From: Candidatus Dojkabacteria bacterium
GTDB lineage: Bacteria; Patescibacteriota; Dojkabacteria; SC72
Direction: 5' to 3'
NCBI GenBank assembly: GCA_012513575.1
Contig: JAAZBX010000002.1
Location: 104,574-168,573 of the forward strand
DNA length: 64,000 nt
Shown in pieces: positions 3,468-40,316 of this stretch. Numbering within the stretch: the stretch's first letter is position 1; every line of letters starts with the position of its first letter. Under the pieces are notes generated by a model. It ran no database searches, had not been told where the DNA came from, and worked only from the letters and a program-made list of their open reading frames with translations. A program made the position numbers and the translations under genes.

Positions 3468-4898
3468 ATGAACAAGGCTGATTTTAAAAGTTACTTCGAA
3501 AATATACAACCCAATTCGAATGAGGATGGGGATGAATTATGGAAATTAACTAAAGAGCACTTAAAATTAATGCTCGGAAACAGAATTTTCTTAAGTCTTT
3601 TTACAGGTGTATATATTGAGAATGTTGGGAATGGAATTGTGCAATTTACTTGTGACACAGAGTACAAAAGAGAGAAGATATTAAGAGATTACAAAGCTTC
3701 AATTAAGCAAGCGTTAAGAAAAGCTAGTGGTCTTAATTATGAAGTTGAGATGAATATTAAAACTTCTACAAATTCGAATAAAAAAGATAGATATGAATAC
3801 CATGATCCAAAAGAAGGAGAGTCCCTAGACCTTTTTTCTTCAAGTCAGAAGCAGAAAGAAAGATTTTTAAAAAGTATTGAGGATTCAAATTTAAATCCAA
3901 GATATCTTTTTTCTAATTTCATTGTCGGAAAAAGTAATGAACTTGCCGAGGCTGTTGCAGAAGCAGTTTCAAACGATTTGGGAAATGCATACAATCCAGT
4001 TTTCTTCTACGGAAATAGTGGGCTTGGGAAAACTCACCTTATGCAAGCGATAGGGAATGAGGTTTTAAAGCAGGATTCTTCAAAAAAAGTTGTTTACACA
4101 ACTACTGAAACCTTTTTAAATGAGATGGTTGATGCTATTAAAACAAAAAGAAATGATGATTTTCGAAACAAATACAGGACTGTTGATCTCCTTATGATTG
4201 ATGATGTCCAATTTGTCGAAATGTTTCCAAGAACTCAGGAGGAGCTCTTCCATACATTTAACGCACTCTATGATTCAAACAAACAAATCATCTTAGCATC
4301 GGATAGGCCACCAAAAGAAATTAAAAATATAACGGAGAGACTTAGAACACGATTCCAAGGTGGCATGGTTGCAGATATTCAGCCTCCCGATTACGAAACC
4401 AGGTTAGCTATTCTTCAACAATCACTTGAAGAGAAAAAACTAAGTATTCCAGAGGAGCATTTAGAAATGATCGCGAAGAATATTGAAAGCAATATTCGAG
4501 AACTTGAAGGAGCACTTACAAAAGTATCTTCACTTTACAGAATTGGCTTGAACCCAAATGAAGAGGAAGTTGCGAAAATTCTCCAAGTGGATTTAGATTC
4601 AAAAAGAAAGAAGATTACTTCAAGCAAAGTAATATCAACAGTAAGTGAAGTTTTTGATGTTAAGCCCTCGGATATTAAAGGAAGTCGTAGGACTGCATAT
4701 GTCGCACAGTGTAGACAAGTTGTCATGTATATCTTACGAAAAGAATTACAGCTTCCTCTTGAGAGAGTTGCAAAAGAGGTAAATAGAAAAGATCATACAA
4801 CCGTGCTTCATGCTTACGATAAAATTGAGGAATTAGTTACAAAGGATAATAGGTTTGGAGAAAGAGTGGATAAATGCATTCAACTGCTTAGGGAATAA
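3468..4898 (+). CDS. dnaA: Chromosomal replication initiator protein DnaA
   Basis: It has the Walker A motif GNSGLGKTHL, the AAA+ box VDLLMIDDVQF, and a C-terminal DnaA-box-binding HTH (HTTVLHAYDKIEE). Confidence 0.95.
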   Translation: MNKADFKSYFENIQPNSNEDGDELWKLTKEHLKLMLGNRIFLSLFTGVYIENVGNGIVQFTCDTEYKREKILRDYKASIKQALRKASGLNYEVEMNIKTSTNSNKKDRYEYHDPKEGESLDLFSSSQKQKERFLKSIEDSNLNPRYLFSNFIVGKSNELAEAVAEAVSNDLGNAYNPVFFYGNSGLGKTHLMQAIGNEVLKQDSSKKVVYTTTETFLNEMVDAIKTKRNDDFRNKYRTVDLLMIDDVQFVEMFPRTQEELFHTFNALYDSNKQIILASDRPPKEIKNITERLRTRFQGGMVADIQPPDYETRLAILQQSLEEKKLSIPEEHLEMIAKNIESNIRELEGALTKVSSLYRIGLNPNEEEVAKILQVDLDSKRKKITSSKVISTVSEVFDVKPSDIKGSRRTAYVAQCRQVVMYILRKELQLPLERVAKEVNRKDHTTVLHAYDKIEELVTKDNRFGERVDKCIQLLRE

Positions 4899-5351
4899 AC
4901 TTGTGGATAACCTTGTGAATAAGTGCTGGACAATTTTTTGTTTTTATAATTAAAAGATGTTTAACTAATCCTATGAGATCATTAAAAGGTTCCTACAACA
5001 ACATTTAAGATGACCTCTTGTATCCACACTCTTTACTAAGATATCCCGTGTTATCCAAAAAAATAATCCACATTGATACAGATTGCCATCTCAACATTTT
5101 TGATTTTCTTAAAGGATAATTCTAAGAAAAGATATCCACTAGGAATTTTGAAGAAAATACTAGTTCCTGACAACGTTAAAATAAATTTAAACAAAAGTTA
5201 TCTACTTATCCATATTGCCTACTACTTTTTCTAAGATATTTAATTAAAAAAGAAATTAATAGATACATTTGTGGAAAAATTAATGTATAATTGGGCATAA
5301 GATTTCTGTGTTAAGAAAACTACCCATATTTAAAATATGATTTGTTGAAAA
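4899..5351. promoter_or_regulatory. Candidate oriC: DnaA-box cluster and AT-rich unwinding region between dnaA and dnaN
   Basis: At least seven TTATCCACA-like 9-mers occur in both orientations. They are TTGTGGATAA at 4901-4910, TGTATCCACA at 5019-5028, TTATCCAAA at 5051-5059, TAATCCACA at 5064-5072, ATATCCACT at 5132-5140, TTATCTACT at 5198-5206 and TTATCCATA at 5206-5214. An AT-rich tract lies at 4930-4975. Confidence 0.6.
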
Positions 5352-6473
5352 ATGAAATTCACTTGTAATCAAGATACATTCTCAAAATATTTAAATATTG
5401 TAAGTAGAGTTGTTACATCAAAACCAGGTTTACCAATTTTAAGTAATGTGATGTTTGAGACAGAGAATGGTAAGCTTACTATGAAGACAACAGATTTAGA
5501 ATTGAGTATTAGTACCTGGATTGGAGCAGATATTCAAGAAGATGGAAAGATTACAGCCCCAGCAAAGCAGCTTTCTGAATTTGTGAATTCTATTCCTGAA
5601 GAAAAGGTAGATATTGAGATCGTTAAACAGAACTTTAATATCTCAACATCGAATAATACTGCTAGTTTTAATACAATGCCTTCTGAGGATTTTCCAAATA
5701 TCCCTGAGGTAGGAAAAAAGAAATATGACTTTAGAGTAAAAAAAATAGATATTGTCCAAGCAGTTAATAGAGTGGCTTTTGCAGCAGCCAGTGATGATAT
5801 TAAACCTGTTTTAACAGGAGTAAAGGTTGAAGTTGAGGATGATAAGGTTTCATTTGTTGCTACAGATGGATACAGGCTATCAAAGCAGAGTGTAAAGATA
5901 GAAAAAGATAGTGGTAAAAAAAGTTTTTTAGTTCCTGTTAGAGCTTTTTCTGAATTGACATATATTATCTCCGAATTGGATACGGATGAGGAGTGGGTTA
6001 ATATTTATCTCTTAGAGGATAGGAATCAGGTTCTTTTTAGATTGTCAGATGTAGATTTAGTTTCAAGATTAATAGATGGAGAGTATCCTGAGTACAAGCA
6101 GATTATTCCTACAGGTTTTGAGACTAAGTGTGTTATCAAGAGAGAGGATTTCCTTAATTCTTTGAAAGTTGTAAATATCATTGCTCGTTCTGTTCTAGGA
6201 AACAAAATGATTTTAAATATTAATACAAAAGATGGAAAGATTGCACTATCAGCTGTTCAAAGTGATTTGGGAAAGAACCAGAGTATTTTTAATGGAGATA
6301 TTAAAGGAAATGATATTAAAATTGCATTTAGTGCAAAGCTTCTATCTGATATATTAAATCATTTAGATTCTGAGGATTTGGTATTCCAGTGTACTGATCC
6401 TGTAAAACCAGGTGTCTTCCTTATTGAAGGGGAAGAGGATTTTGTACATTTGGTTATGCCTATGATGCTTTAG
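5352..6473 (+). CDS. dnaN: DNA polymerase III beta sliding clamp
   Basis: It is a 373-aa protein whose N-terminus (MKFTCNQDTFSKYLNIVSRVV...LPILSNVMFE) and three-domain length match DnaN. It lies immediately downstream of dnaA. Confidence 0.9.
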   Translation: MKFTCNQDTFSKYLNIVSRVVTSKPGLPILSNVMFETENGKLTMKTTDLELSISTWIGADIQEDGKITAPAKQLSEFVNSIPEEKVDIEIVKQNFNISTSNNTASFNTMPSEDFPNIPEVGKKKYDFRVKKIDIVQAVNRVAFAAASDDIKPVLTGVKVEVEDDKVSFVATDGYRLSKQSVKIEKDSGKKSFLVPVRAFSELTYIISELDTDEEWVNIYLLEDRNQVLFRLSDVDLVSRLIDGEYPEYKQIIPTGFETKCVIKREDFLNSLKVVNIIARSVLGNKMILNINTKDGKIALSAVQSDLGKNQSIFNGDIKGNDIKIAFSAKLLSDILNHLDSEDLVFQCTDPVKPGVFLIEGEEDFVHLVMPMML

Positions 6474-6484
6474 GTTTTCTGTCT

Positions 6485-7030
6485 CTAATCAAAGCATTCT
6501 CTTAGACTTCTCCAAGCTTCTATAATTATCTCTTTGTCGTCTCTTAATCTTTCTGAAGCAAATTCCAAAGCCACTCCATTATTTTTAACAGCTTTCAAAA
6601 CTACCTCTTTATCATTTTTTAATTCATCGGAAGCATATTTTAAAGCAAAACCATAACTTTCAACTACCTCAGTGACAATATCTTTATCATTTTTTAATTC
6701 ATCTGTCGCATATTCTAAAGCATTTGGATTTTTTTGAAGTACCTCTATCATAAACTCCCTATCACTTCTTAACTCATCAGAAGCAAATAGTAAAGCTTTG
6801 CCATTTAGTATTTCCCATGGTGATATTAAACCTTCTGCCTCGCTTGTAATTGCAGTCATCACAACTTCCCTATCATTTTTTAATCTTTCTGAAGCATATT
6901 CTAAGAATGTTCCTATTTTCTTAACGACTTTTAAAGTAATCTCTTTATCCTCCCTGAGAGCTGGAATCTCATGGTATTCCTTAACATAATCAGGAGTACT
7001 TAGTTCTTGTTCTAACTCCGAAGTTTCCAT
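6485..7030 (-). CDS. DUF4116-type repeat protein
   Basis: It contains at least four tandem repeats of about 35 aa, of the form A(S/T)DELKNDKEVV...ALE(Y/F)AS. Confidence 0.55.
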   Translation of the reverse strand: METSELEQELSTPDYVKEYHEIPALREDKEITLKVVKKIGTFLEYASERLKNDREVVMTAITSEAEGLISPWEILNGKALLFASDELRSDREFMIEVLQKNPNALEYATDELKNDKDIVTEVVESYGFALKYASDELKNDKEVVLKAVKNNGVALEFASERLRDDKEIIIEAWRSLRECFD

Positions 7031-7109
7031 ATCTATATCATCAAAAATAAAATATATGGGGAGTTTGTGTATATATTATATAACAATTCTCTTTGGAGTC
7101 CAATTATAG

Positions 7110-7790
7110 TCATTCTTTAGGTTTTCTGTCTCTAACAATGTATCCTATACCATGTACTGTCTCAATGACATTTCTGTCTTCAAGTTTACTTCTCAGTCTG
7201 TTTATATGCACATCGATTGTGTTTGAACCTATATACTCTCTATAGTCCCAAACATGATCGAGCAATTCACACCTTGAAATTGGTCTGTCTTTATTTCTTA
7301 CCAAATACTCAAATAGGTCATATTCCTTATTCCTAACTTCAATATCCTCATTTCCCTTTTGTATGCTTTTGCTATTAGTATCCAAGACTAAGTTTCCAAG
7401 ATAAAGGTTGTTATCTATATACGATTTAGGTCTTCTGCTTACTGATTGAATTCTTGCTAATAACTCTTGCATAGGAAAAGGATATGTAAGGACATCATCT
7501 CCTCCATGGTTTAGAAAATTCACTTTCTCAGGCCAACCACCATTATTACAAACACCCAAAACTTTTGTTTTAGGGCAATGCTTAATTATGTAAGAAAGTA
7601 TTTCCTCGCTCTTGTTGCCTGAAAGTTTTGTGTTTAATATTACAAACTCAAAAATCCCATCTTTGACGTATACCTTACTACCAAAATTCTCATTATCTAA
7701 AGTCACTTTATATCCGTATGAATCAAGAGTTTTTTCTATAATCTGTGAAAGAGTGGAAGAATTCTCTATAATTAAGATATTCATTCGCAA
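7110..7790 (-). CDS. Atypical OmpR/PhoB-family response regulator with a degenerate receiver domain and a winged-helix DNA-binding domain
   Basis: The C-terminal trans_reg_C domain is intact (RCELLDHVWDYREYIGSNTIDVHINRLRSKL...GIGYIV). The receiver-like N-terminus lacks the acidic pocket (ENSS instead of DD) and the phospho-acceptor Asp (VILNTKL). It also lacks the conserved T and K positions. Confidence 0.7.
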   Translation of the reverse strand: MRMNILIIENSSTLSQIIEKTLDSYGYKVTLDNENFGSKVYVKDGIFEFVILNTKLSGNKSEEILSYIIKHCPKTKVLGVCNNGGWPEKVNFLNHGGDDVLTYPFPMQELLARIQSVSRRPKSYIDNNLYLGNLVLDTNSKSIQKGNEDIEVRNKEYDLFEYLVRNKDRPISRCELLDHVWDYREYIGSNTIDVHINRLRSKLEDRNVIETVHGIGYIVRDRKPKE

Positions 7791-7861
7791 AAAGTGTAAA
7801 ATTAATAGGCAAAGCTTAATTTTATATATATGTATAATTAAATCCTAGTAAACGAACATTT

Positions 7862-8230
7862 ATGAAATTTACTTTTACTTTTTTCTTTCTTTTAGGCTTT
7901 AGCGTAAGCTTCTTGTATTATTTATTTCAAAACCAAACCTTCCTTCCAACTGTTTCTTTGCATGAAGTAAATTGGAGTAACTTGTTTGTATTTGTAACCT
8001 TCTCTCTTCTCTCACTTCTCTCTCTCTTAAATTTGATTTTCTATCATTCATACAAAATATTTAAGAAAGAAATGCCCGAGAAATTAAGAATCAGAGAAAG
8101 TGTTAAATTCTCCCTCTTCATTTCTTTAGGTATTCTTGTTGTTTTCGCGTTACACATCTTCCACATAATCAGCTTCCCTTGGGGTATTGGAATCCTTGTT
8201 GTTCTACTGTTACTCTTTTTTGTGGTATGA
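7862..8230 (+). CDS. Hypothetical small multi-pass membrane protein
   Basis: It is a hydrophobic 122-aa ORF with no recognisable motif. It could be spurious. Confidence 0.3.
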   Translation: MKFTFTFFFLLGFSVSFLYYLFQNQTFLPTVSLHEVNWSNLFVFVTFSLLSLLSLLNLIFYHSYKIFKKEMPEKLRIRESVKFSLFISLGILVVFALHIFHIISFPWGIGILVVLLLLFFVV

Positions 8231-8915
8231 TAAACCAAGAAATATGGAAAATGACAGCATGGAAAAATTAGCAGATTTCTTAACAGGAGAGAAAGCTCTT
8301 CGAGATAAGGAGCAAAGTATTGAGAATGCAAAGAAAGAAGCTATTAAAGAGGAAAAAAACAAAAGAAGGAGAGATATTGTAGAAGGCAAAGCGAAATTAA
8401 AAGAAGATCCTGTTCAGAAAAAGAAGGTTGTCCAAAATATTAAACTTTTTGAATGGTCCGCTCCAGAAAGGTATCAGATCAAGCTTCAAAGCAAGAACTT
8501 TTTAATCATTGTTGTTATTTCACTTCTCTTTATCTCCCTTCTTGCTGTTCTTGGTAAATATTATCTTATTGCTGCAATAATTTCTGTCCTTTTTGTAATA
8601 TATGCTGCTGGTAGTACCAAACCTTTAATTGCAAAACATAAAATTACTGCAAGGGGGATAGAAACTGTTGGGAAACTGTATGAATGGTATATGCTTGAAG
8701 ATTTCTACTTTTGTAAAAAGGGAAATATGTATACTCTGCTTGTTCAAACAAAATTGAACTTCCCTAAAGCATTAGTATTACTTTGTAATGAGAAGGACAA
8801 AGACCCAATATTTGTAATTCTTCAAAAGAAACTTCTGTACAGGGATATTAGAAAGAAACTAAGCAAAGTTGATGTTCTTTCCTTTGGAGAATATGTTCCA
8901 TTAGAGAGAATCTAA
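8187..8915 (+). CDS. Hypothetical membrane protein with a lysine-rich coiled-coil N-terminus and two TM helices
   Basis: The true start is probably the internal Met near 8244 (MENDSMEKLADF), which would avoid overlap with the previous ORF. No known motif was found. Confidence 0.35.
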   Translation: MESLLFYCYSFLWYDKPRNMENDSMEKLADFLTGEKALRDKEQSIENAKKEAIKEEKNKRRRDIVEGKAKLKEDPVQKKKVVQNIKLFEWSAPERYQIKLQSKNFLIIVVISLLFISLLAVLGKYYLIAAIISVLFVIYAAGSTKPLIAKHKITARGIETVGKLYEWYMLEDFYFCKKGNMYTLLVQTKLNFPKALVLLCNEKDKDPIFVILQKKLLYRDIRKKLSKVDVLSFGEYVPLERI

Positions 8916-8930
8916 CGTTAAAGTTTCTGA

Positions 8931-9587
8931 ATGAAAAAAGTTCAAAAGAATTTAAATATCGAGAAATTAAGGAAAAACTTTTCCCATTTGTTTGTTGGAA
9001 TGGATTTGCAGAAAACAGAGATTGAATTCTTGTTTTCTGAATTAAAAGAAATGTATGAACAGGAGGGTAGATATTACCATAATTTGAAGCATATTGAGAG
9101 AATGCTTTCTTTTTTAGAAAGAAGAGTAGACAGAATAGAAGATTGGGTATCTATTCAGCTAGCTGTTTGGTTTCATGATTGTATTTATGATATCCATGAC
9201 AGTAAAAATGAAGAAAGAAGTGCCGATTTCGCTAGAAAAAGACTATCCGATTTAGGAGTATCTGAAGATCTTGTTGAGAAAGTAGCAGATTTAATTCTTC
9301 TTACGAAAAAGCACGAGATTACGGCAAAACATTCTAATTATGACACCAAAATCTTTTTAGATTCAGACCTTATGTCTTTGGGAGGTAGTTTTGAGGAATA
9401 CAGCAAGATATTTGAAAGAATTAAAAAAGAGTATTCTGAAATTCCTAGTGAAGTATTCAAGAATGGTAGAAGAGTATTTCTCCAATCAATTCTTTCAAAA
9501 CCAAGAATATTTTACACAGATGAAATGTTTTTAGAATTTGAACAGGATGCAAGGAGAAATTTGGAAAGGGAGTTAGTTAGCATTTAG
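8931..9587 (+). CDS. HD-domain metal-dependent phosphohydrolase-like protein
   Basis: It carries an H...HD metal-binding signature (YHNLKHIERM ... VWFHDCIYD). Confidence 0.5.
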   Translation: MKKVQKNLNIEKLRKNFSHLFVGMDLQKTEIEFLFSELKEMYEQEGRYYHNLKHIERMLSFLERRVDRIEDWVSIQLAVWFHDCIYDIHDSKNEERSADFARKRLSDLGVSEDLVEKVADLILLTKKHEITAKHSNYDTKIFLDSDLMSLGGSFEEYSKIFERIKKEYSEIPSEVFKNGRRVFLQSILSKPRIFYTDEMFLEFEQDARRNLERELVSI

Positions 9588-11193: not shown

Positions 11194-12027
11194 TTGATTG
11201 AATTTAAGTATTTTGATGATCATCCCAAAAATAAAGAAGGTAATGTCTCGTTCCCCGCAGGCTATCGTTCATTAGACATATTTGTTTACTCTGAGGGAAA
11301 TGAGTTTGAAAGTCACTATGACAGAATGTGGGAACATTCTACAAAGATGTTTAGAATTCCAGATAAAAGGGAGAATCCTTTGTATGCAACTGATGTAAAA
11401 TTGATAGAGAAGTATCTCCCCGCACAGGTGGAAATGGGTTGTGGGCCATCAATTGAGGTTGGAATTCCTCCTCTACATGGAATGCACGAGACTTACAAAG
11501 TTCAGAATCACCTAACTCACAAATTCTACTTCGCTGATATGGATTATTTGATATTGCAAATTATCGAGAATCCTCTTGAGATGTATAAAAAGTTTTCAAG
11601 AGTCCCCATTCTATGTCTTACATCTGAACACTCTGATGCATATTTGAAGTTTAAAAAGTATTATGACAAAGGTTTGTTTGTAGGAACTGTATACAACAAC
11701 AATTTTGATAGGTTAGTTAAGAGATTAGATATTCCAGAATTTATTTTGCGAATATATGACAAAAAGAGGTATTTACCAAAGATTGATTTTGATCCAAAAG
11801 CAAAATCATTAATTTGTTTTGGTTCTCATGCAGATAGGAGAATGGTTCAAAAACAAGCAAGAGAGAAGGGTCTTCAAATTATATTTGTTGATCCAGAGGG
11901 TTTTGATACACCAAATGGATTTGATTCTTATCCAATAGAGGGTCCTAAGGATGGAGATATTATTTTCAAGATGCCATTCTCAGAATTTATGGATAAGTTT
12001 GATAAATATTTTGAGAAAAGAAACTAA
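11194..12027 (+). CDS. Hypothetical protein
   Basis: The ORF track begins at a TTG. The first in-frame ATG is at 11326. No motif was recognised. Confidence 0.4.
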   Translation: MIEFKYFDDHPKNKEGNVSFPAGYRSLDIFVYSEGNEFESHYDRMWEHSTKMFRIPDKRENPLYATDVKLIEKYLPAQVEMGCGPSIEVGIPPLHGMHETYKVQNHLTHKFYFADMDYLILQIIENPLEMYKKFSRVPILCLTSEHSDAYLKFKKYYDKGLFVGTVYNNNFDRLVKRLDIPEFILRIYDKKRYLPKIDFDPKAKSLICFGSHADRRMVQKQAREKGLQIIFVDPEGFDTPNGFDSYPIEGPKDGDIIFKMPFSEFMDKFDKYFEKRN

Positions 12028-12044
12028 CTTAGACAAAGTTCTGG

Positions 12045-12073
12045 TTGAGTGAAATTTGAAAAAATGGTATAAT
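12045..12073 (+). promoter_or_regulatory. Sigma70-type promoter with an extended -10 element, upstream of ssrA
   Basis: TTGAGT lies at 12045-12050. After a 17-bp spacer comes TGgTATAAT at 12065-12073, about 20 nt upstream of the tmRNA 5' end. Confidence 0.5.
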
Positions 12074-12094
12074 ACTAATGTTCTTTACAAATAT

Positions 12095-12501
12095 GGGGAC
12101 GTCAGGCTATCGACAGAAGCTTGATTCTAGTTATCACAAACCGTTTGTTAAGTTCGTTATTCTTAACACACATTATAAGTGTAAAAAATAAAATCGTCGC
12201 TTTTGCAGAGCAGTTAAAAGCAGCTGTTTCAGCTCCACTTTATAACTATAACTTTGCATAAGTTTAACTGATTAATTTCGGTTAATGTCTTTTATCCTTT
12301 TCCCTAATGAGGGATGTAAGACAGTCGTTATTAGGGTATGGTCTTCTATCAGGTCAGTAGGGTAGTAGATTGAAAAATATAACTGAGGAGATGTACTTTT
12401 TGTCTAATCTTTTAGGTATGTCTTACTAAACAAGAGTAGATATGTTTGTATATGGTGCTAGATGACACTTTTGGACATGGGTTCAATTCCCATCGTCTCC
12501 A
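12095..12501 (+). ncRNA. ssrA: tmRNA (SsrA)
   Basis: The 5' GGGGACG pairs with the 3' CGTCTCC to form a tRNA-like acceptor, and the T-arm is ATGGGTTCAATTCCCAT. An internal tag ORF reads GCT TTT GCA GAG CAG ... AAC TTT GCA TAA. Confidence 0.85.
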
Positions 12502-12526
12502 CATTGTAAAGATTTAAATGTGGAAA

Positions 12527-12934
12527 CTATTTCTCTTTTGTAATTAACTTTTTTACATCTATAAGCCCTTTTATCAAAACAGGAACTAGTAAGATTGGGA
12601 TAATTGGCAAAGAATCATCAAACATCAGAAATTCAGCAATAATAGCAACAATTGTAAGTATTATTGAGTAAATAAATATTTTCTCTGTACTTTTAGGAGT
12701 TTCAAGTTTGTCTTTTCTAAGCTTGTTCCCAAATATAAATATTCCGATGGAAACAAAAATAGAAGCAGAGAAGTAGACAATATCTATTGTAGATATGCTC
12801 TCAGAAGTATATACATCGTAGTATATAAATTGCCCGGCGATAAAGACTATCTGCCTAAGTAGGAAAATTATAGAGATAATAAAAACAATCCATCCGATAG
12901 CTTTTATCGTTTTTTTTGTTTCCTCTTGGTCCAT
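12527..12934 (-). CDS. Hypothetical multi-pass membrane protein
   Basis: It is a 135-aa hydrophobic ORF with no motif. Confidence 0.4.
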   Translation of the reverse strand: MDQEETKKTIKAIGWIVFIISIIFLLRQIVFIAGQFIYYDVYTSESISTIDIVYFSASIFVSIGIFIFGNKLRKDKLETPKSTEKIFIYSIILTIVAIIAEFLMFDDSLPIIPILLVPVLIKGLIDVKKLITKEK

Positions 12935-13063
12935 TTAATTATTGTTTAATTTAATAAAAAAATCATATATCTTTATTCCTTCACCGTCAACGTCTATCCT
13001 GCCTTTAATTGTATAAAGCCAATAATTTAGGTATATTAAACTAATAAATTAATATTAATCTAA

Positions 13064-13696
13064 ATGGAAGATAAAAAATATCTCAACGAGGAAAAATATC
13101 AAAAAGTTGTAAAAAAGTTATCTAAAATATCAATTGTCATATTAATATTGGGTCTCTTAATAGGGGGAGGATTAATAGCGTATGGATTTTTCAAATCCAA
13201 TGAAAAAACAACACCAGCAGTTGTGAAGGAAGAAGAGAAAAGTGAAGAGGATATTAAGGCAGAGATTCAGGCTTTAGAAAATGAAATAGCTCCTTTAGAA
13301 GCAAAAAAGGCTGAAGAATTTACACAAAACGGCTTTTCTGAGGAATACTACAGACTCTCAAATCAAATAGAGGAGAAAGATATAAAGTTAGGCAGTTTAA
13401 GAGTTGGGTCATTTGAAGAATCGAAGGTTTTTGAAGATTTTAAAGAGAAGTCGGATTCAATTGTAAAGAAAGTAAAATACTCTCCTTTCTATATGATAGG
13501 TGGTTTTATCATTTTTGCATCATTTGTAGTCTCTTTCATGGTATTTCTCTTTTCCAAGAGAAGAGAGATTTCAGCTTTCTCAGTACAGCAGAGTATGCCT
13601 GTGGCTAAGGAAGGTTTGGAAAAGATTGCGCCTTCATTGGGCGAAGTAGGAAAAGAAATTGCAAAAGGAATCAAAGAAGGGACAAAGGAGGAATAG
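13064..13696 (+). CDS. Hypothetical membrane-anchored coiled-coil protein
   Basis: It has an N-terminal TM helix, a Glu/Lys-rich coiled coil and a second TM helix. Confidence 0.4.
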   Translation: MEDKKYLNEEKYQKVVKKLSKISIVILILGLLIGGGLIAYGFFKSNEKTTPAVVKEEEKSEEDIKAEIQALENEIAPLEAKKAEEFTQNGFSEEYYRLSNQIEEKDIKLGSLRVGSFEESKVFEDFKEKSDSIVKKVKYSPFYMIGGFIIFASFVVSFMVFLFSKRREISAFSVQQSMPVAKEGLEKIAPSLGEVGKEIAKGIKEGTKEE

Positions 13697-13697
13697 A

Positions 13698-14324
13698 TTA
13701 AAGCGAAAGAAGTAGCACAACGATAATACCAAGCACCATAAATGGAACAAAGGGTATTTTTAATCCCTTAAACCTCTTTTTCTTGTAAGCAAGTATCAAA
13801 CCATAGATTAAAGCAGTAAAGATAGTAATATATAGCCAAAGTATTAAATTACTACTCCCAATTAAAAGACCACAGATAATTGCAATCCTAACATCTCCTT
13901 GTCCTAGTCCTTTCTCTTTAGTAATTACAACAATCAATTGAAATATCAGACCTAATATAATAGCTCCAATTAAATTCTCATAAGGGAGATAGAAGTAATT
14001 TCTTGTTACTTCAAGTCCCCAAGTACTTCCTTTAACTAGAAAAAAAGAGACATTCAAAAGTAAGAGGGTGATAATTAGATAAAGAGACACCTTTTGATCT
14101 ACCTCCATCGTTTTGAAATCCTTTAATGCGAGAAAGAGGAGCAGGGTAAATATGAGAAGAAGAATCAAAAGGATAAATACTGTTTTAAAAGAACAGGTGG
14201 AATTGAGAAGGACTTTAAAGCTTGCAAAAAGCTGTACTAGAATAAATACTGTGATACTTATGATCTCTTCGATTTTTAATTTCTCTTTAAATATTTGAAA
14301 TTTCAAATGGGTCCGAATTAACAT
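13698..14324 (-). CDS. pilD: Prepilin peptidase (A24 family, short form)
   Basis: It is polytopic with the A24 signature GLGQGDVRIAIICGLLIG. It sits at the end of the pilus operon. Confidence 0.7.
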   Translation of the reverse strand: MLIRTHLKFQIFKEKLKIEEIISITVFILVQLFASFKVLLNSTCSFKTVFILLILLLIFTLLLFLALKDFKTMEVDQKVSLYLIITLLLLNVSFFLVKGSTWGLEVTRNYFYLPYENLIGAIILGLIFQLIVVITKEKGLGQGDVRIAIICGLLIGSSNLILWLYITIFTALIYGLILAYKKKRFKGLKIPFVPFMVLGIIVVLLLSL

Positions 14325-14664
14325 TTAATTCTTTTAGGATATTTACATAATTATCTGAATCATCTGTTGCTGTTATGCTCAAAAGTTTAACTCCAGGTTC
14401 TCCAACCTTCTCAGCTATTATTGAATTGCAACTCCAACCTTCCTGAGTCATTGAGAATACTCCAACAAAGAGGTGGTCTCTTTTAATTTTGTATACACTT
14501 TCTTCAAGGCAGGTCTCAGCATTTATTTGGAGTATGTTACTGTCATAGGTCATTTTGCTTGTAAGGAGTAGTCCAATATTTTTGTAAACTAAATCAATTC
14601 CTGTTAGAAGAAGGATTGGTAATACTATTAATACGGTTGTTAGTGCAATATATCCTTTTTTCAT
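14287..14664 (-). CDS. Small pilus-associated membrane protein, possibly a PilX-like minor pilin without E5
   Basis: It has an N-terminal hydrophobic helix (KKGYIALTTVLIVLPILLL) and lies within the pilus operon. The assignment is weak. Confidence 0.35.
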   Translation of the reverse strand: MKKGYIALTTVLIVLPILLLTGIDLVYKNIGLLLTSKMTYDSNILQINAETCLEESVYKIKRDHLFVGVFSMTQEGWSCNSIIAEKVGEPGVKLLSITATDDSDNYVNILKELNVNSDPFEISNI

Positions 14665-14666
14665 TG

Positions 14667-15143
14667 TTATCTAATTATTGCTAAAAAACTTATCGTTTTT
14701 GATTGGCTATACTTGCTTCCCGATACAATCTCAACAGTTATCTTTGTTGCAACTACTTCATTTTTTCGATTTGTCACTGGTTCAAGATACATCTTTATTA
14801 CTTGTATATTACTTGGTGTAATGGGAATAGAGTTGTAAAGGATTCTAGAATTTTCCAAACGATATATCTTTTCCCCATCTTTGAGCATTACTGAGAGAAC
14901 TCCAGAGTCGTTGTTAAATATTGTATTGGTTGTATTAATACTTAAAGTTTTGCTGAATGTGTCCTGTATATGCTGGATTACGAAAGAAGAAGATTGCAGG
15001 GCAAGAACTCTACTTGCTGTTCTCTGGCTTGATTCTTGTGCGGAGAGCATGAATGAAACAATTATTATCATGATTGAAGCAGTAAGCCCTATGTAGAGAA
15101 CCGTTTCAAACAATGTTAATCCTTTTAATTTGTTACTTTTCAT
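14667..15143 (-). CDS. Prepilin-type N-terminal domain protein (minor pilin or pseudopilin)
   Basis: The true start is probably the Met at 15143 (MKSNKLKG|LTLFETVLYIGL). The cleavage site is G|LTLFE, with Glu at +5. Confidence 0.55.
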   Translation of the reverse strand: MKSNKLKGLTLFETVLYIGLTASIMIIIVSFMLSAQESSQRTASRVLALQSSSFVIQHIQDTFSKTLSINTTNTIFNNDSGVLSVMLKDGEKIYRLENSRILYNSIPITPSNIQVIKMYLEPVTNRKNEVVATKITVEIVSGSKYSQSKTISFLAIIR

Positions 15144-17061
15144 AGCTAATAGAGAGTTCCTTAAGTAAAGATGTTGTATCCGTATTTGAAACAAAGTCAG
15201 CTTTGTACTGGAAATATCTTCCATGGAGTGGAGCAGTAAGGTAGTAAATGCCTGTGGTTGAGTAGTAAGTATCCGGGGTGTTGTCTGGTCCCACCCAAGT
15301 GCTTCCTTCCATTGTAGCTGAGGAGCTTGCCCTTAGTTGAATTTTTAATTCAGAACCTACTGGAATTTCGGTATCTAAAGTTAAAGTGTAAAAAGTGGCA
15401 GTTTCGGAGGTAGTATCTAAAATTTTTGACAGATATTGACCAGAAGGAAGATATCCATAACCATCGTCTCCTCCGCCTCCGTTTCCTCCTTCAATTACTT
15501 TGAGCTCATTTGTTGAATCTGATGTAAGTACATATGTGTAAAGGTGTTCTCCAAGAATTACTAAATCCATGGAATTGATTGATGTTGAGATACTCAATTG
15601 CCCACATTGAGTGGCTGAGGTCCCTGTGGAGATATCAAGTACAATGTAGTCTGGGTTTCCATACCCACCCTCTCCTCCAATCATAACTCTGTTCTCTACC
15701 GCAGTAATTGAGCTTACAGCAAGTGTCCCTAGTTCGTATGAGAAAACAAGTGGGTATTCTGTATACTTGTTTGAGATATCAAGGACATAGAATTCGTGTC
15801 CAGCATTTGTGCTTGTCCCTACATATGCTTTGTTCTTGTCTAGGGAGATAAAGAGGGCAGTAGGGGTAATGCTTCCCAAATTTGCTTTGCCTACTAGCGT
15901 AATTGTGGGAGAATAAGTGTAAACTTTTAGGTTGTAAGTATCACCACTTACAGTGACATACATGAAATTTTCATCAACATACAAATCAGTTACCAAAGCT
16001 CCTCCGCCTCCTACAGAAACAGATCTTAATGTACTTCTTGATCCTGTTTTTACTGTAATATCAAAGAGTGTTACATTGTTTCTGTAACTTACAAATCCAA
16101 TATTCCCATATCCTGCGACATGTTGGCCATCAACATTCCCAGACAAATCATACCATCCGACCTCCTGATAGGGAGAAATATTTGTACTTATGATAGACAC
16201 CTCCTTTGAGTTTGTGTCTGACCCAATTAATGCATATCCATCAGGGAGAGCTTGTATATCATTGGTTTTTCCAAGATCGACATTCCCATTTACTGTTAAT
16301 ATTGGTTCTCCATTTGAATTCTCTGTTACTGTCGCCTTTACAAAAGAGAGACCTGAAGCGTTGTCCCCTGTTCCCATATATATGGTATTCCCATGGGTAG
16401 AAATTGTTTTTGCTACACCTTGTCCTGGCAGGTCAAAAGCATATGTACTAAGAGATGGCCTGCACCAATCAAAATACCTTTGGGGGGCAAGCCTTAATTC
16501 TCCTCCATATGTCTCTTGTGCTAGGGTATCGGTATATGTCCCTAGGTCAAAATCTGCTTTTGAAGTAAATACAACTGAATTAATATTCCAGTCATTTAAA
16601 AATAGCTTTGGAGTAAGTGTGTAAAGTTTCCCCAATCTATCTCTCCATTGGATATTAATATCTACAGTTCTTGTATGAGGATCTAGCGTGCCACCCTCGC
16701 TGACTATCTCCCCCAAGTTATTTCTGTAGGCATACGAGATGGTAAAAAAGTAGTTTAAAGAATTTTGAACTCCAGGACCCTCAGCTATACTGTACGTTCC
16801 GTCAACAAACTCGATATGCCTTTCTCCTCCATCTGTTTCTTTGGAAATACCAAACCACTCCTCAGATTTAACAAATTTTAGAGCGGAGTATATATCCCTC
16901 GTTAAATTTGCAGCATTTGTCCTTTTCTCAATATTTTCATATGCTCTTGTGGCATCTACCATCAAGAAAATCAGAAAAGAAGATATAACCGCAAAAAGTC
17001 CAATAGAGAGAACTATCTCAGTTAAGCTAAAACCTTCCAATTTTTTCTTCTTTTTATTCAT
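15133..17061 (-). CDS. Giant 642-aa prepilin-type protein, a putative pilus tip or adhesin subunit
   Basis: It has a class III signal (MNKKKKKLEG|FSLTEIVLSIGL) followed by about 600 aa of Gly/Thr/Ser-rich, beta-rich sequence. Confidence 0.6.
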   Translation of the reverse strand: MNKKKKKLEGFSLTEIVLSIGLFAVISSFLIFLMVDATRAYENIEKRTNAANLTRDIYSALKFVKSEEWFGISKETDGGERHIEFVDGTYSIAEGPGVQNSLNYFFTISYAYRNNLGEIVSEGGTLDPHTRTVDINIQWRDRLGKLYTLTPKLFLNDWNINSVVFTSKADFDLGTYTDTLAQETYGGELRLAPQRYFDWCRPSLSTYAFDLPGQGVAKTISTHGNTIYMGTGDNASGLSFVKATVTENSNGEPILTVNGNVDLGKTNDIQALPDGYALIGSDTNSKEVSIISTNISPYQEVGWYDLSGNVDGQHVAGYGNIGFVSYRNNVTLFDITVKTGSRSTLRSVSVGGGGALVTDLYVDENFMYVTVSGDTYNLKVYTYSPTITLVGKANLGSITPTALFISLDKNKAYVGTSTNAGHEFYVLDISNKYTEYPLVFSYELGTLAVSSITAVENRVMIGGEGGYGNPDYIVLDISTGTSATQCGQLSISTSINSMDLVILGEHLYTYVLTSDSTNELKVIEGGNGGGGDDGYGYLPSGQYLSKILDTTSETATFYTLTLDTEIPVGSELKIQLRASSSATMEGSTWVGPDNTPDTYYSTTGIYYLTAPLHGRYFQYKADFVSNTDTTSLLKELSISYEK

Positions 17062-17515
17062 ATTCTATCAACCCCTCCTCATTTATACTTACTTTAACTG
17101 ATTGCGAACCTATTCCAACATATATGTTTCCAAAAGATACTGGCTTGAAAGAGTCATTTGGGAAGAGAATTGAGTTATCAGTTGTTAATGCTGTTGAAGA
17201 AATATATGTGTTTTTAGGAAGAACTTTTTCGTCTTTTTCTGTTCCTGTATCAAAGGAGTCCCCATCAAAAAGGTAATATCTTCCGTTGGTAAAATATATC
17301 CCTGTTGAGATATTTTTGCTTTTTGCTCTTTGTTGTTGATAGTAGATATCGGAAGCTATCTGAGAAGCGTACCCCTTTATCTTTGATTTTTGGACATTTC
17401 CAAGAGTTGTAGGGAATGTTAATGCCGAAATTAGAAGTAAAAGCCCCAGAGTAAGGATAATTTCAAGGAGAGAGAAGCCTTTCAAATCTTTTGTTTTTAA
17501 TTTTTTCCTAACCAT
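17054..17515 (-). CDS. Minor pilin (prepilin-type N-terminal cleavage/methylation domain)
   Basis: The N-terminus is MVRKKLKTKDLKG|FSLLEIILTLGLLLLIS, with Glu at +5. Confidence 0.6.
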   Translation of the reverse strand: MVRKKLKTKDLKGFSLLEIILTLGLLLLISALTFPTTLGNVQKSKIKGYASQIASDIYYQQQRAKSKNISTGIYFTNGRYYLFDGDSFDTGTEKDEKVLPKNTYISSTALTTDNSILFPNDSFKPVSFGNIYVGIGSQSVKVSINEEGLIEYE

Positions 17516-18707
17516 TGATAGTACCCATTAATTGATAGATTGGCATGAGAACAGTAATTCCCAGACCCCCAATTATTGCTCCTACCAAAATTAGAAGAAG
17601 AGGTTCTACGAATGTAACAATATTGTTGCTCATTTCAGTTACTTCTTCTGAGTAGAATTCGTGAAGGTACATGAGATTATCTTCCAAAGAGCCACTTACC
17701 TCACCGATATCCACCATTTTTACGAAAGAGGTGTTGAAATATTTAGGATATTCAGCAAGTGAGATGGAGAGATCTTTCCCATCATGGATACTTTGGTGTA
17801 TTTCTTTTAAGATCCCTGCATAGATGGAATTACTTGTCGTGGCAGAAGCGATTTCCATTGATTGCTCTAGAGGAATTCCACTTGCTAGAAGGACGCTTAA
17901 TGTCCTTGAAAAGGAAGCAAGAATGTTTGCGATAAAGAGTTTTTTGAGGATTGGGAAATGTATTGCAAGCCATCCGAGGAATTTTTTACCAGATTTTGTT
18001 TTAAGATAAAGAATAATTAAGGTAATAATGACTGCTAATATTGCAAATATATACATCCAATTTGTTCTAATGAACTTTGAGGCGCTCATTATGAAGAGAG
18101 TGAATTTAGGAATATTCTCAAAAGCCTCAAACATTGTTTCAAGTTTAGGAAGAACGATAAAGATCATTCCAAGAAATTCCATTAGAGTCATTCCCACAAT
18201 TATGACTGGGTAGATAATTGCTCCTTTGAGTTTTTTGTTTATCTCCCATTCTTTTTGAATTGTCTCCGCAACAAATATTAAGTTTTTTTCTAAGGAGCCA
18301 CCTTTCTCTCCAGCCTCGACAACAGAGGATATTGTTCTTGGGAATACTTTCGGAAATAGATTCATAGCTTTAGCCAAACTTACGCCTTTTTTTACTTCGT
18401 TGGATATATAGTCGTATATCTTATTTAAATTTTGATCACTTGATTGTCCAGAGATGGTCTCAATCGTTTCTGACAATGGGATTCCTGCTTTTAATAGGGC
18501 AGCTAGGGATTTAATTGAAATTAGTAGTGTAGGGACTTTAATCTTGTAACTCTGTAAAGTTTTTAGTAGCTTAGCTTTTTTCTTGTCCTCTATCTGAATT
18601 TGGCTTGTTTTTTCCTCCCCTATTGTCTCTTTGGTCTTAACGGCTTCTTCCTTTTTAACTTCTTCCACTAATTCTTCTTTTTTAGTTTGTTCCTTTTCTT
18701 CTTTCAT
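17508..18707 (-). CDS. pilC: Type IV pilus assembly platform protein PilC (GspF family)
   Basis: It has two GspF-type repeats (e.g. EAGEKGGSLEKNL and GEVSGSLEDNL) and three TM segments. Confidence 0.85.
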   Translation of the reverse strand: MKEEKEQTKKEELVEEVKKEEAVKTKETIGEEKTSQIQIEDKKKAKLLKTLQSYKIKVPTLLISIKSLAALLKAGIPLSETIETISGQSSDQNLNKIYDYISNEVKKGVSLAKAMNLFPKVFPRTISSVVEAGEKGGSLEKNLIFVAETIQKEWEINKKLKGAIIYPVIIVGMTLMEFLGMIFIVLPKLETMFEAFENIPKFTLFIMSASKFIRTNWMYIFAILAVIITLIILYLKTKSGKKFLGWLAIHFPILKKLFIANILASFSRTLSVLLASGIPLEQSMEIASATTSNSIYAGILKEIHQSIHDGKDLSISLAEYPKYFNTSFVKMVDIGEVSGSLEDNLMYLHEFYSEEVTEMSNNIVTFVEPLLLILVGAIIGGLGITVLMPIYQLMGTING

Positions 18708-20131
18708 TAATCTTTTATTGCAATAACTCTTATTAATTCTTTTATATCTATCATACCATCTGTTAATTTACTTACTGCATCTTCAACCATGAGTTTGAAG
18801 TCACCCTTTTTAGCTGTTGTCAGAATTGCATCCATTGAAGGGTTAGAAATAATGGTGTCCCTTAAAGGTTTATCTATATACAACAACTCATAGATTCCGA
18901 CTCTTCCAGAGTATCCAGTGTTGTTACATTTCTCGCAGCCTACAGCTTTGTAAAGTTTTTGAGAGGGTTTAACAAATTTCTGTAGGTCAGGTCGTAATTT
19001 AAGTAACTCTTTGTTCTCTTCATCTTTTTCTAGTACATACTCTTTTTTACACTCTTTACAAAGTCTTCTTGCAAGTCTTTGAGCTACAACAATATTCAAT
19101 GTAGAGGCTATCAGGAATGGCTCAATCCCCATATCCACAAGTCTTGGGATGGCACTTACGGAATCATTTGCGTGAAGAGTAGAGAGAACTAGATGGCCAG
19201 TTAATGCTGAGTTTACAGTAATTCTTGCGGTCTCAGTGTCTCTAATCTCTCCGACCATGATTACATTTGGATCTTGTCTTAGAATAGACCTTAATCCTGT
19301 GGCGAATGTTAAATCACTTTTCACATTTATCTGTATGTGGTTTACACCATCGATACTGTATTCAACAGGGTCTTCAATAGTGGTAATGTTAACCTCTCTA
19401 GTGTTTAGAATTTTAAGGATAGAGTAGAGGGTTGTTGTTTTCCCACTTCCAGTTGGGCCAGTTATGAGGATGAGTCCGTACGGTTGTCTGTATGATTTTT
19501 CTAGGAATTCTAAATCATGGTTACTGAAACCTAAATCAGACATAGAGTACGACTTATTGGCTTGAGTGAGCAACCTTATTACAACTTTCTCACCAAAAGT
19601 CACAGGCAATATTGATACTCTTGCATCAACATTGTATGTGTCTTTTTCTAGAGATTGAAATGCCTCTAAACGGTTTAATGTCTTTTTGATTTCCTTTTCT
19701 TTCTCTTTTTCTTCGTCTTTACCCCATCTGCTCTTTTTTGGCTTCTCTTCCTCTTTTGTCTCTTCTGCTTCTTTTTCTTCTTCCTCTTTCTCGTTCTCTT
19801 CCTTGGATATTGGTTCTCCATCGATTAAGGATTTTTTGAATTCAAAAGGAATTTTTCCATCCTGAGGTGTTAGATGAACATCTGTTCTTAACTTAGCTCT
19901 TACTTTGATAATAAAGAGTAAGCTTTCTTTTAATTCTGGGCCAATGGAAATTGTGTCTCTTAGTACACCATCAACTCTGTATCGTACTAAAAGTGCATTG
20001 TCTTCTTTTGACTCTATGTGAATATCAGAAGCTCTGCTCTTTAGGGCATCTAGGATTAAAGCATCAAGAAAGTCAGATATATTAATCTTCTTCTTGAGCA
20101 CATCATCCATTAATTCTAGTAGTTCAATCAT
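18707..20131 (-). CDS. pilB: Type IV pilus assembly ATPase PilB (GspE family)
   Basis: It has the Walker A motif LITGPTGSGKTTTL, Asp and His boxes, and a tetracysteine motif (CKECKK...CEKCNNTGY). Confidence 0.9.
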   Translation of the reverse strand: MIELLELMDDVLKKKINISDFLDALILDALKSRASDIHIESKEDNALLVRYRVDGVLRDTISIGPELKESLLFIIKVRAKLRTDVHLTPQDGKIPFEFKKSLIDGEPISKEENEKEEEEKEAEETKEEEKPKKSRWGKDEEKEKEKEIKKTLNRLEAFQSLEKDTYNVDARVSILPVTFGEKVVIRLLTQANKSYSMSDLGFSNHDLEFLEKSYRQPYGLILITGPTGSGKTTTLYSILKILNTREVNITTIEDPVEYSIDGVNHIQINVKSDLTFATGLRSILRQDPNVIMVGEIRDTETARITVNSALTGHLVLSTLHANDSVSAIPRLVDMGIEPFLIASTLNIVVAQRLARRLCKECKKEYVLEKDEENKELLKLRPDLQKFVKPSQKLYKAVGCEKCNNTGYSGRVGIYELLYIDKPLRDTIISNPSMDAILTTAKKGDFKLMVEDAVSKLTDGMIDIKELIRVIAIKD

Positions 20132-20200
20132 AACCCTAGGACAGCTAAGAGCTATCTGATATTCACTTTAAATACACAAAACACGTTATCTAGTAAGAAC

Positions 20201-20632
20201 CTATCTTCTTACTGAAATTACTTTTCCCTCTGCCCTTGGAGCAGCAATCTGAATCCTTGTACCTACTGTACAAATTGTGTAGCCAGTAATAGCATCTGTT
20301 CCATTTGTTGGATCTGTTGGGATTGAGACAATGTAGTCTTGATCCTCAGCTGTTAGAATTGTGAGGTCAATACCCTCCGTACCAATCGATGAAGGACCAT
20401 CAACATCGTCACATGATTTTATTCCTTCTGGGAGCTCATTCCTATCAGTTGTGTACTGTGTAACCGCATTTAGGATTGAGTTCACATCTGAGCTCCTCTG
20501 TGCATTTCTAGTATCCTTGAAGTTCTTTCCAGGATTGATAGCAACAATTGTTATTGTAGCAAGAATGATGATCAATGCTACAACAACAAGGATCTCGATA
20601 AGTGAGAAGCCCTCGTATCTTTTTCTACTCAT
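20201..20632 (-). CDS. pilA: Type IV major pilin (PilA-like)
   Basis: The N-terminus is MSRKRYEG|FSLIEILVVVALIIILATITIVA. Two C-terminal Cys residues are consistent with a D-region disulfide. Confidence 0.75.
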   Translation of the reverse strand: MSRKRYEGFSLIEILVVVALIIILATITIVAINPGKNFKDTRNAQRSSDVNSILNAVTQYTTDRNELPEGIKSCDDVDGPSSIGTEGIDLTILTAEDQDYIVSIPTDPTNGTDAITGYTICTVGTRIQIAAPRAEGKVISVRR

Positions 20633-38789: not shown

Positions 38790-38794
38790 AAAAT

Positions 38795-39100: not shown

Positions 39101-39164
39101 TATTGTTTTTTAAATTATACTATTGTACTATTTGTTAGGCTTAAATAAATTAATTCATTACTAA

Positions 39165-39515: not shown

Positions 39516-39649
39516 GACTTTATTCAAGAGCAATTGACATTTCTTCACGACATCGGAGTGTTCTTTATTAACCACTCTTGTTGAATTCCTAATATTGTTA
39601 TTATATAATGAGCATTAAGATAATTAATATTAAATAAATAATTAAAACA

Positions 39650-40000: not shown

Positions 40001-40036
40001 GAAATCCATTGAATAAGATATAAGAATACATTCGGA

Positions 40037-40309: not shown

Positions 40310-40316
40310 TTAAGAA

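Follow-up and report, generated by a model that had tools for sequence, protein, structure and literature searches.

The window analyzed here, a 64,000-nucleotide (64-kb) stretch of a Candidatus Dojkabacteria bacterium contig, carries on its minus strand, close to dnaN and to the probable replication origin (oriC), a gene for an atypical OmpR-family response regulator. The open reading frame (ORF) at 7110-7790 is the longest there and, according to the ORF list of the window, encodes an OmpR/PhoB-type protein. The initial annotation, made from the letters of this DNA, had taken the whole frame as the gene; the minus-strand gene stands, but its start does not, since 160 of 160 orthologs with a readable start begin at the equivalent of the ATG at 7782-7784 (MNILII...) and the database proteins have 224 amino acids, which places the coding sequence (CDS) at 7110-7784 rather than at 7110-7790, with a TTG at 7790. 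A database protein that is 100% identical, likewise of 224 amino acids, comes from a 450,994-bp contig and bears the annotation Candidatus Dojkabacteria bacterium. The gene and its parts are as follows.

7110-7784, minus strand: CDS of the 224-amino-acid atypical OmpR-family regulator (ATG 7782-7784, TGA 7110-7112; from a codon check)
7434-7784, minus strand: predicted pseudo-receiver domain, residues 1-117 (Pfam Response_reg; alignments with DrrD, CheY, and PhoB; AlphaFold2 model)
7434-7535, minus strand: α4-β5-α5 face, residues 84-117 (W84...GGDDVLTYPFPMQELLARIQSVSR), a putative dimer interface (conservation)
7134-7409, minus strand: winged-helix DNA-binding domain, residues 126-217 (Pfam Trans_reg_C; recognition-helix conservation)
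Within the winged-helix domain, minus strand: recognition helix, residues 188-201 (NTIDVHINRLRSKL), and the C172 codon at 7269-7271
7764-7766, 7761-7763, and 7632-7634, minus strand: codons of E7, N8, and N51
7548-7550, 7491-7493, and 7482-7484, minus strand: codons of C79, V98, and Y101

The receiver-like domain and its fold

The C-terminal domain matches Pfam Trans_reg_C (PF00486) at E=7e-24, with 84 bits against a cut-off of 26.2, which identifies an OmpR/PhoB-family output domain and bears out the earlier view of an OmpR-family protein with an intact winged helix. The N-terminal domain matches Response_reg (PF00072) at E=4e-7, its 30.5 bits being barely above the cut-off of 30.2. The linker between the two (residues 118-125, RPKSYIDN) contains no cysteine, the cysteines of the regulator being residues 70, 79, and 172. 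Two antisense ORFs on the plus strand, at 7093-7245 and 7612-7848, are unsupported. A search of positions 6000-9000 for Rfam families and tRNAs gave no match, and the counts of promoter and terminator patterns were no greater than in shuffled sequence.

Residues of the receiver-like domain were assigned from three agreeing alignments, namely a phmmer comparison with Protein Data Bank (PDB) chains and two MAFFT alignments, one of CheY and PhoB with close relatives and one, re-checked, of 150 cluster representatives. E7-N8 correspond to CheY D12-D13 in both the phmmer and the MAFFT alignments, N51 (FVILNTKL) to the phosphoacceptor D57, C79 (GVCNNG) to T87, V98 to the switch tyrosine Y106, and Y101 (LTYPF) to K109. 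Within the catalytic quintet (the acidic pair DD, the acceptor D, T/S, and K), four of the five residues are therefore replaced in the window protein and the first acidic residue alone is kept, as a Glu that PhoB has as well. The domain had been described as lacking every phosphoacceptor residue, with ENSS in place of the acidic pair. The alignment with CheY and PhoB sustains most of this description, with Asn at the acceptor position, Cys at the Thr position, Tyr at the Lys position, N8 in place of the second acidic residue, and no acceptor Asp; "every," however, goes too far because E7 persists, and the "SS" lies beyond the acidic pair.

The domain is thus recognized as a receiver by hidden Markov model, is devoid of the phosphotransfer residues, and has no Asp at the acceptor position. 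These are the marks of the pseudo-receivers and aspartate-less receivers, which make up ~6% of bacterial receiver domains (PMC12632262; PMC4395418), include the OmpR-family members HP1043, CosR, ChxR, GlnR, and RitR (PMC12632262), and switch in ways that are largely not understood (PMC12632262). Judged by its aligned residues, the receiver of the window protein is a pseudo-receiver, not phosphorylatable at the canonical site.

An AlphaFold2 model built from 67 family sequences comprises a complete (βα)5 domain followed by a winged helix and has a mean predicted local distance difference test (pLDDT) score of 88; pLDDT is >90 over most of residues 1-117, where the model has all five strand-helix units of a receiver fold. 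A Foldseek search of the PDB returned full-length OmpR-family regulators as top matches, including the atypical CosR, RitR, and HP1043. CosR held rank 1 and HP1043 rank 34, with the whole OmpR family matching alike, so that no specific structural affinity emerged from this search. The isolated effector domains of SaeR, YycF, PhoB, and CovR superpose with a root-mean-square deviation of 1.3-2.4 Å.

OmpR-family receivers dimerize via their α4-β5-α5 surface. Over 67 diverse members of the Dojkabacteria family, the mean frequency of the top residue is 0.81 in α4-β5-α5 and 0.52 in the rest of the receiver, the recognition helix reaching 0.82. In the α4-β5-α5 segment, 14 of 26 residues are the same as in PhoB, and in and around the recognition helix S187, N188, T189, D191, V192, H193, and R198 are invariant. 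As these alignments indicate, the gene is real and strong purifying selection is acting on it. A decaying, nonfunctional two-component relic, which the degenerate active site and the marginal Pfam receiver score might bring to mind, has next to no probability: ~160 loci have an uninterrupted reading frame, 19 diverse family members share 95 invariant columns, the dimer face and the recognition helix are highly conserved, and the gene is kept in small genomes. The pseudogene reading is effectively refuted by this conservation.

Variation across the family and the neighboring kinases

A scan of GTDB (one genome per species) yielded 78 Dojkabacteria loci plus one unrelated canonical regulator, and a metagenome scan added 80 further loci; some of the Dojkabacteria loci carry the automatic label "uncultured Saccharibacteria." Identity to the window protein is 54-100% over the loci of the core clade (≥50% identity) and 38-48% in six deep-branching loci. 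Among 1.84 billion cluster representatives, the regulators form a discrete family of ~30 clusters (E < ~1e-30), beyond which lie ordinary regulators with the residues EDDTYK, and the named members of the wider family are all assigned to Dojkabacteria, WS6, or the "Patescibacteria group." Contigs of ~0.45-0.8 Mb bear the gene, and the largest contigs of the genomes concerned are no longer than this.

None of the NCBIfam equivalogs (PhoB, MtrA, CtrA, NblR, RpaB, etc.) was matched at its cut-off, the 25 listed families falling far below; the best match was PhoB TIGR02154, with 123 bits against a cut-off of 296. By phmmer, the best sequence match in the PDB was the canonical DrrD (1kgs) at 1.5e-32, with CosR at 2.4e-23 and HP1043 at 4.7e-19, and ChxR was absent from the best 60 PDB matches. 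Since DrrD scores better and no NCBIfam equivalog was reached, we consider that the regulator is not an ortholog of HP1043 or CosR and that the likeness is convergent. The parallel drawn in the initial annotation with HP1043 and ChxR probably applies to the working mode, but not to kinship. Our literature search found no publication on the family, nor any that links Dojkabacteria or Patescibacteria to atypical or pseudo-receiver regulators. From these sequence comparisons, the kind of protein is already known, and the family is undescribed and not orthologous to the named atypical regulators. Three features set the family apart: Tyr/Phe replaces the Lys and is combined with a Cys at the Thr position, the family is conserved throughout a class of the candidate phyla radiation (CPR), and it holds a fixed, origin-proximal position convergent with dnaN.

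The active-site residues vary within the family. With the signature written in the order DD1, DD2, D, T, Y106 position, and K, the core clade contains ENNCVY (85 loci), EKDCVY (31 loci), EKNCVY (10 loci), and DKDCVY (7 loci), as well as the rarer EDNCVY (6 loci), EENCVY (5 loci), ENSCVY (4 loci), and EKGCVY (4 loci). The Lys position is occupied by Tyr or Phe, with one His in a divergent member, in all 158 locus copies and in the ~30 cluster representatives aligned there, and the switch Tyr position holds Val, Ile, or Cys across the family. All core-clade members have Cys at the Thr position, where deeper branches have S, H, T, N, or I. At the acceptor position N prevails, D occurs in ~40 loci, and the wider family also has G, S, T, or E. 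In the core clade, an acceptor Asp is always paired with Lys at DD2 (38/38), and we read this exclusive pairing as a charge-neutralized, noncatalytic pocket that would no longer bind Mg2+. The pocket would thus have decayed by at least two routes (N8/N51 in one, K8 with D51 retained in the other) after a shared loss of the Lys.

Two cysteines deserve separate mention as a pair: of 131 unique core-clade locus sequences, 123 have Cys at both position 79 and position 172, and both are mostly absent in deep-branching members. Such co-occurrence would speak for a thiol/redox or metal switch, in which C79 (the former Thr position) and C172 (in helix α2 of the winged-helix domain), by sensing redox state or binding a metal, would gate dimerization or DNA binding. 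The contig sources of the Dojkabacteria loci, mostly anaerobic digesters and sludge, would suit this kind of control, and there are precedents in the disulfide dimer of RitR and in the Cys/Zn-dependent oriC binding of HP1021 (PMC12632262, PMC8266642). RitR of Streptococcus pneumoniae is, like the window protein, an OmpR-family pseudo-receiver, and it is among the structural and sequence matches (5u8k, 5u8m, 5vfa); its switch, however, is a single linker Cys (C128), and the linker RPKSYIDN has none. Moreover, the co-occurrence of C79 and C172 is confined to one clade and may go back to a single inheritance event, and deep-branching members function without either Cys. On balance, we hold a thiol switch to be unlikely.

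To look for kinases, five kinase cores (HK853, EnvZ, PhoR, DesK, and CheA) were compared by phmmer with six-frame ORFs of at least 60 amino acids. With these cores, neither the 64-kb window nor any core-clade locus yielded a histidine kinase, and ~160 loci of up to ~20 kb contained neither a kinase nor a second receiver, save for L084, L085, L086, and L088; the kinase of a canonical outgroup locus (L077), the positive control, was detected at 3e-41. In these four deep-branching loci, whose regulators are 38-45% identical, a kinase of 720-794 amino acids with the architecture 7TM-HisKA-HATPase_c (7TM, seven transmembrane segments) lies within 10 kb; dnaN and dnaA flank it in L084 and L086. The kinases are located as follows.

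L084, 4330-6714: 7TM kinase
L086, 12421-14748: 7TM kinase
L088, ~12008-14284: 7TM kinase
L085, 17929-20089: 7TM kinase

Along their whole length, these four kinases are orthologous to one another. The regulators beside them have the signatures EDGICF, EDNHVY, ADDNCY (L086), and EDNSVY, so that all four are without the Lys and three of the four without the Asp. The presence of an orthologous 7TM kinase near four deep-branching relatives suggests that the family probably descends from a genuine two-component pair. The term "orphan" in the initial annotation, with no kinase nearby, is thus correct for the window but does not extend to these four relatives. It is very improbable that the window protein itself is still kinase dependent, being phosphorylated by a distant kinase at another residue or inefficiently. 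The orthologous kinases of the relatives would be in keeping with this possibility, as would the report that phosphotransfer sometimes survives a substitution of DD, T, or K (PMC12632262) and the reach of our scan, which was the window and the loci rather than the whole genome. Nevertheless, four of the five catalytic residues are gone from the window protein, the acceptor included; the residue at the acceptor position is not fixed within the family (N, D, G, S, T, or E), with kinase-adjacent members carrying G or N; and outside the four deep-branching loci no kinase was found in ~160 loci.

The dnaN-oriC neighborhood and the divergent membrane-protein genes

The response regulator (RR) gene belongs to a fixed layout, [2TM<-4TM<-][->RR][<-dnaN<-dnaA] (TM, transmembrane segments), in ~160 orthologous loci. 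It is convergent with dnaN in essentially every locus, the 3' ends usually overlapping (stop-to-stop ORF gaps of -49 to +3 in ~150 loci), and past dnaN come dnaA and then rpmH-rnpA-yidD-yidC-jag. The layout is kept in members that are 32-42% identical, whether the acceptor position is N, G, D, or even E. The closeness to dnaN and oriC that had been pointed out for the window is therefore a property of every family member examined, down to ~32% identity. The features around the window regulator are listed below.

4865-5351, no strand: probable oriC, in and beside the dnaA-dnaN intergenic region (DnaA-box-like 9-mers and a DnaA-trio-like TACTAC near 5220)
5352-6473, plus strand: dnaN (β clamp), the ancestral convergent neighbor (Pfam DNA_pol3_beta domains in the identical locus L080)
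6465-7135, no strand: DUF4116 insertion between dnaN and the regulator (gene at 6485-7030, minus strand, E=4e-78)
7785-7861, no strand: divergent intergenic region of 77 bp, shared by the regulator and the membrane-protein operon
7862-8230, plus strand: 122-amino-acid protein with ~4 TM segments, divergent from the regulator (synteny by tblastn/phmmer, hydropathy)
8259-8915, plus strand: 218-amino-acid protein with 2 TM segments, second gene of the divergent pair (synteny, hydropathy)

Eight of the 23 DnaA-box-like 9-mers of the window (≤1 mismatch) fall within 414 bp, at 4865-5278, the first of them in the last dnaA codons, and this cluster is ~1.8 kb from the regulator gene. Of 109 dnaA-dnaN intergenic regions from Dojkabacteria, 95% contain the DnaA-box word ATCCACA and 72% contain CTACTAC; in two control regions (regulator upstream and dnaA coding), CTACTAC is present in 3-4%. 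The segment at ~5197-5260 resembles a basal unwinding system, with AGTTATCTAC, TTATCCATA, TTGCC, and TACTACTTT followed by AT-rich sequence.

In the window, the end of dnaN at 6473 is 637 nt from the regulator stop, and the neighbors had been given as a DUF4116 protein and small membrane proteins. Both are present, but the DUF4116 gene is a recent, lineage-specific insertion of 647 bp, and the ancestral neighbor is dnaN. On either side of the insertion is one copy of a 24-nt direct repeat (6465-6488 and 7112-7135, 23/24 identical, spacing 647) that duplicates the former 3' overlap of dnaN and the regulator, and only a few close relatives have DUF4116 at this position. The empty site is found in L148, L149, and L153 (regulator 95% identical), where the dnaN stop TAG falls within the last codons of the regulator. 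The DUF4116 gene is built of 75-nt (25-amino-acid) internal repeats.

On the other side, a 122-amino-acid 4-TM protein and a 2-TM protein of ~190-270 amino acids are encoded across the loci divergently from the regulator, over a shared spacer of ~75 bp, and the 4-TM gene adjoins the regulator in nearly all loci, divergent members included. The 122-amino-acid protein has no Pfam or NCBIfam family, and the C terminus of the 218-amino-acid protein shows a weak, DUF5673-like match (Pfam E=9e-4) that is below the cut-off; neither has a recognizable domain or family. A possible role for this pair is partner-protein control, in which the 4-TM and 2-TM proteins would provide the sensory input and, by sequestering or releasing the regulator at the membrane, would replace the kinase. 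Their head-to-head position in essentially every locus, including those of members 32-42% identical, argues for it, as does the precedent of Rem-MirA among pseudo-receivers under protein-protein control (PMC12632262). We nonetheless give partner control only a modest outside chance, given that conserved divergent neighbors are explained equally well as the target operon of the regulator and that neither membrane protein is in a recognizable family. Of note, one divergent relative (L083) has at 7257-8759, just past the membrane-protein pair, a gene for a 500-amino-acid PAS-domain protein with no kinase domain, which could be an alternative sensory component.

An invariant recognition helix implies that the operator should be conserved too. 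We aligned 125 unique upstream regions with MAFFT, computed the information content per column, and scored matches with a position weight matrix (PWM). Two conserved blocks were the only ones to appear, and no OmpR-style direct repeat emerged. The first, ATTAATTT, lies within 7795-7809, ~15-20 nt upstream of the regulator ATG; the second, TCTCTAGGTTTT (window form TTTACTAGGATTT), lies within 7838-7853, 12-14 nt upstream of the ATG of the 122-amino-acid gene. The PWM of the more specific block, applied over 132 loci, gave 4.5 matches per kb in the home region; in the dnaA-dnaN spacer its rate, 0.09 per kb, was close to that of the background (0.10 per kb). As a test of oriC as a target this is weak and speaks neither for nor against it. 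The k-mers common to the dnaA-dnaN spacer and the regulator upstream region were generic AT-rich words only. The motif AAAACCTAGA(A/G) of 7838-7853 recurs, with the top PWM score of the window, at 58935-58950, upstream of a small gene starting at 58961, where it precedes an AAGGAG Shine-Dalgarno sequence; this motif could be a promoter or an element of the 5' untranslated region.

The conserved setting also bears on whether the protein is a regulator of the replication origin or of dnaA-dnaN, acting like HP1021, CtrA, and MtrA, either by binding to oriC or a control region or by convergent transcription into dnaN, and so linking replication to a signal. Throughout the family the gene lies next to dnaN and to the DnaA-box-rich spacer, the usual overlap of the 3' ends leaves no room for terminators, the related kinase lies between dnaN and dnaA in two deep-branching genomes, and the atypical regulator HP1021 binds oriC (PMC8266642). 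We still see a slim chance for such a role, because the most specific upstream motif is no more frequent in the dnaA-dnaN spacer than in the background, no non-generic k-mer is common to that spacer and the upstream region, and bacteria generally conserve gene order near their origins. The DUF4116 insertion adds that direct abutment on dnaN is dispensable.

Mode of action and evolutionary history

We think it probable that the window protein is a phosphorylation-independent transcription factor of the OmpR/PhoB fold, acting as a constitutive dimer. Its pseudo-receiver keeps the predicted (βα)5 scaffold and the α4-β5-α5 surface, but the acceptor Asp is gone, as are the Thr and Lys residues by which a phosphoryl group is sensed and, presumably, the ability to bind metal. 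Dimerizing constitutively via α4-β5-α5, it would serve as a permanent dimerization module for an always-competent winged helix. We propose this mechanism because of the conservation of α4-β5-α5 and of the constitutive dimers and phosphorylation-independent DNA binding documented in ChxR, HP1043, and GlnR (PMC12632262, PMC3960148, PMC8345958). DNA would be bound via the invariant recognition helix, and the output would be set by the abundance of the regulator or by a nonphosphoryl input rather than by a kinase. The likeliest direct targets would be the promoter of the regulator gene itself and the operon of the two divergent membrane-protein genes. The residues, the predicted fold, the conservation, the synteny, and the lack of a local kinase are observations, from which we infer the dimerization, the constitutive activity, these targets, and the order of evolutionary events.

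By analogy, the regulator probably works like HP1043, CosR, or ChxR. HP1043 (HsrA, Helicobacter pylori) and CosR (Campylobacter jejuni) likewise combine a receiver-like domain that has a degenerate site with a winged helix and have no partner kinase, and HP1043 is a constitutive dimer (PMC8345958, PMC5253667, PMC12632262). In CosR, too, the acceptor Asp is missing, N51 being aligned with a Ser in CosR (LVLASWNL) and with the Asp of DrrD (VILDIML). The two proteins are, however, only 26-28% identical to the Dojkabacteria regulator; CosR keeps the Lys (VKKPL), whereas the Dojkabacteria family has Tyr/Phe there and Cys at the Thr position, and the fixed location convergent with dnaN belongs to the Dojkabacteria family and not to HP1043 or CosR. 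ChxR of Chlamydia trachomatis, an OmpR/PhoB-type atypical regulator in another reduced genome, dimerizes, binds DNA, and activates transcription without phosphorylation (PMC3960148); it comes from another lineage, and its genomic context is not origin linked. HP1021, Cj1608, and Abu0127 are atypical orphan regulators that share a link to the replication origin and conserved Cys in both domains (PMC8266642; PMC12632262), but they bind oriC and act as Cys redox switches, whereas the oriC link of the Dojkabacteria regulator is positional only. DrrD and PhoB, the best overall sequence matches, largely share the α4-β5-α5 and recognition-helix motifs; unlike them, the Dojkabacteria regulator retains just one of the five catalytic residues, has lost the switch Tyr, and has no adjacent kinase.

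Several points weigh against a constitutive, phosphorylation-independent dimer. Some family members keep the acceptor Asp and four have a kinase nearby, and residual phosphorylation may occur in the Asp-retaining or kinase-adjacent lineages. The kinase scan covered 64 kb of the genome, and a search of a protein database with a profile of the four Dojkabacteria 7TM kinases returned four close orthologs only and missed two of its four own queries, which makes it uninformative. On the DNA side, no operator was identified in the 125 aligned upstream regions, and both conserved blocks are sited like the -10 elements of short-leader mRNAs, so that they may be promoters and not binding sites. Dimerization, which we regard as probable, is deduced from conservation.

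The history that we propose for the constitutive regulator starts in an ancestor of the Dojkabacteria, where the family would have been born from a genuine two-component pair at the replication-origin locus. The change from Lys to Tyr/Phe would have come first, because it is common to all members; the acidic pocket would then have decayed by different routes, and the 7TM kinase would have been lost in the main clade. An ancestral pair, followed by the loss of the Lys and then of the kinase, is the simplest history we can infer, and it draws on four loci. The family offers a natural series, namely one orthologous gene at a fixed position throughout a whole CPR class, with universal loss of the Lys and at least two routes of decay. 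Because the kinase presumed to be the original partner survives in the deep branches, this series makes it possible to test in what order the steps toward a pseudo-receiver were taken.

Should the protein do no more than control itself and two membrane proteins constitutively, it would simply be one more member of a class already known. Given the small, reduced genomes of the Dojkabacteria and the universal retention of this DNA-binding protein beside dnaN and oriC, it is reasonable to consider it first when looking for a regulator in this uncultivated lineage that is global or linked to replication. A bolder version, which we regard as a long shot, is that the regulator is the surviving half of an ancestral origin-locus two-component system and is now an origin-linked master regulator that couples the expression of dnaA/dnaN, or origin firing, to an envelope or redox cue. 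It would act by binding oriC or by convergent, overlapping transcription with dnaN, and the cue would be sensed via the paired membrane proteins or the C79/C172 thiols. If true, such an origin-linked master regulator would give an episymbiotic bacterium of ultra-small size a minimal means of controlling its cell cycle.

Elsewhere in the window, a tmRNA gene (tag VKNKIVAFAEQLKAAVSAPLYNYNFA) lies at 12095-12504 and a tRNA-Ile with the anticodon UAU at 49661-49737. A type IV pilus/type II secretion-like cluster at ~13698-20632 includes a prepilin peptidase A24, a T2SSF platform protein, a putative ATPase of 474 amino acids, and several pilin-like proteins with N-terminal GFSLxE motifs. According to the ORF list, seven small genes (90-116 amino acids) are arranged in tandem at 38442-40640, mostly with hydrophobic, signal-peptide-like N termini, and two of the seven proteins are alike in sharing ...IKTVLNFA / ...IQTVLNFA.

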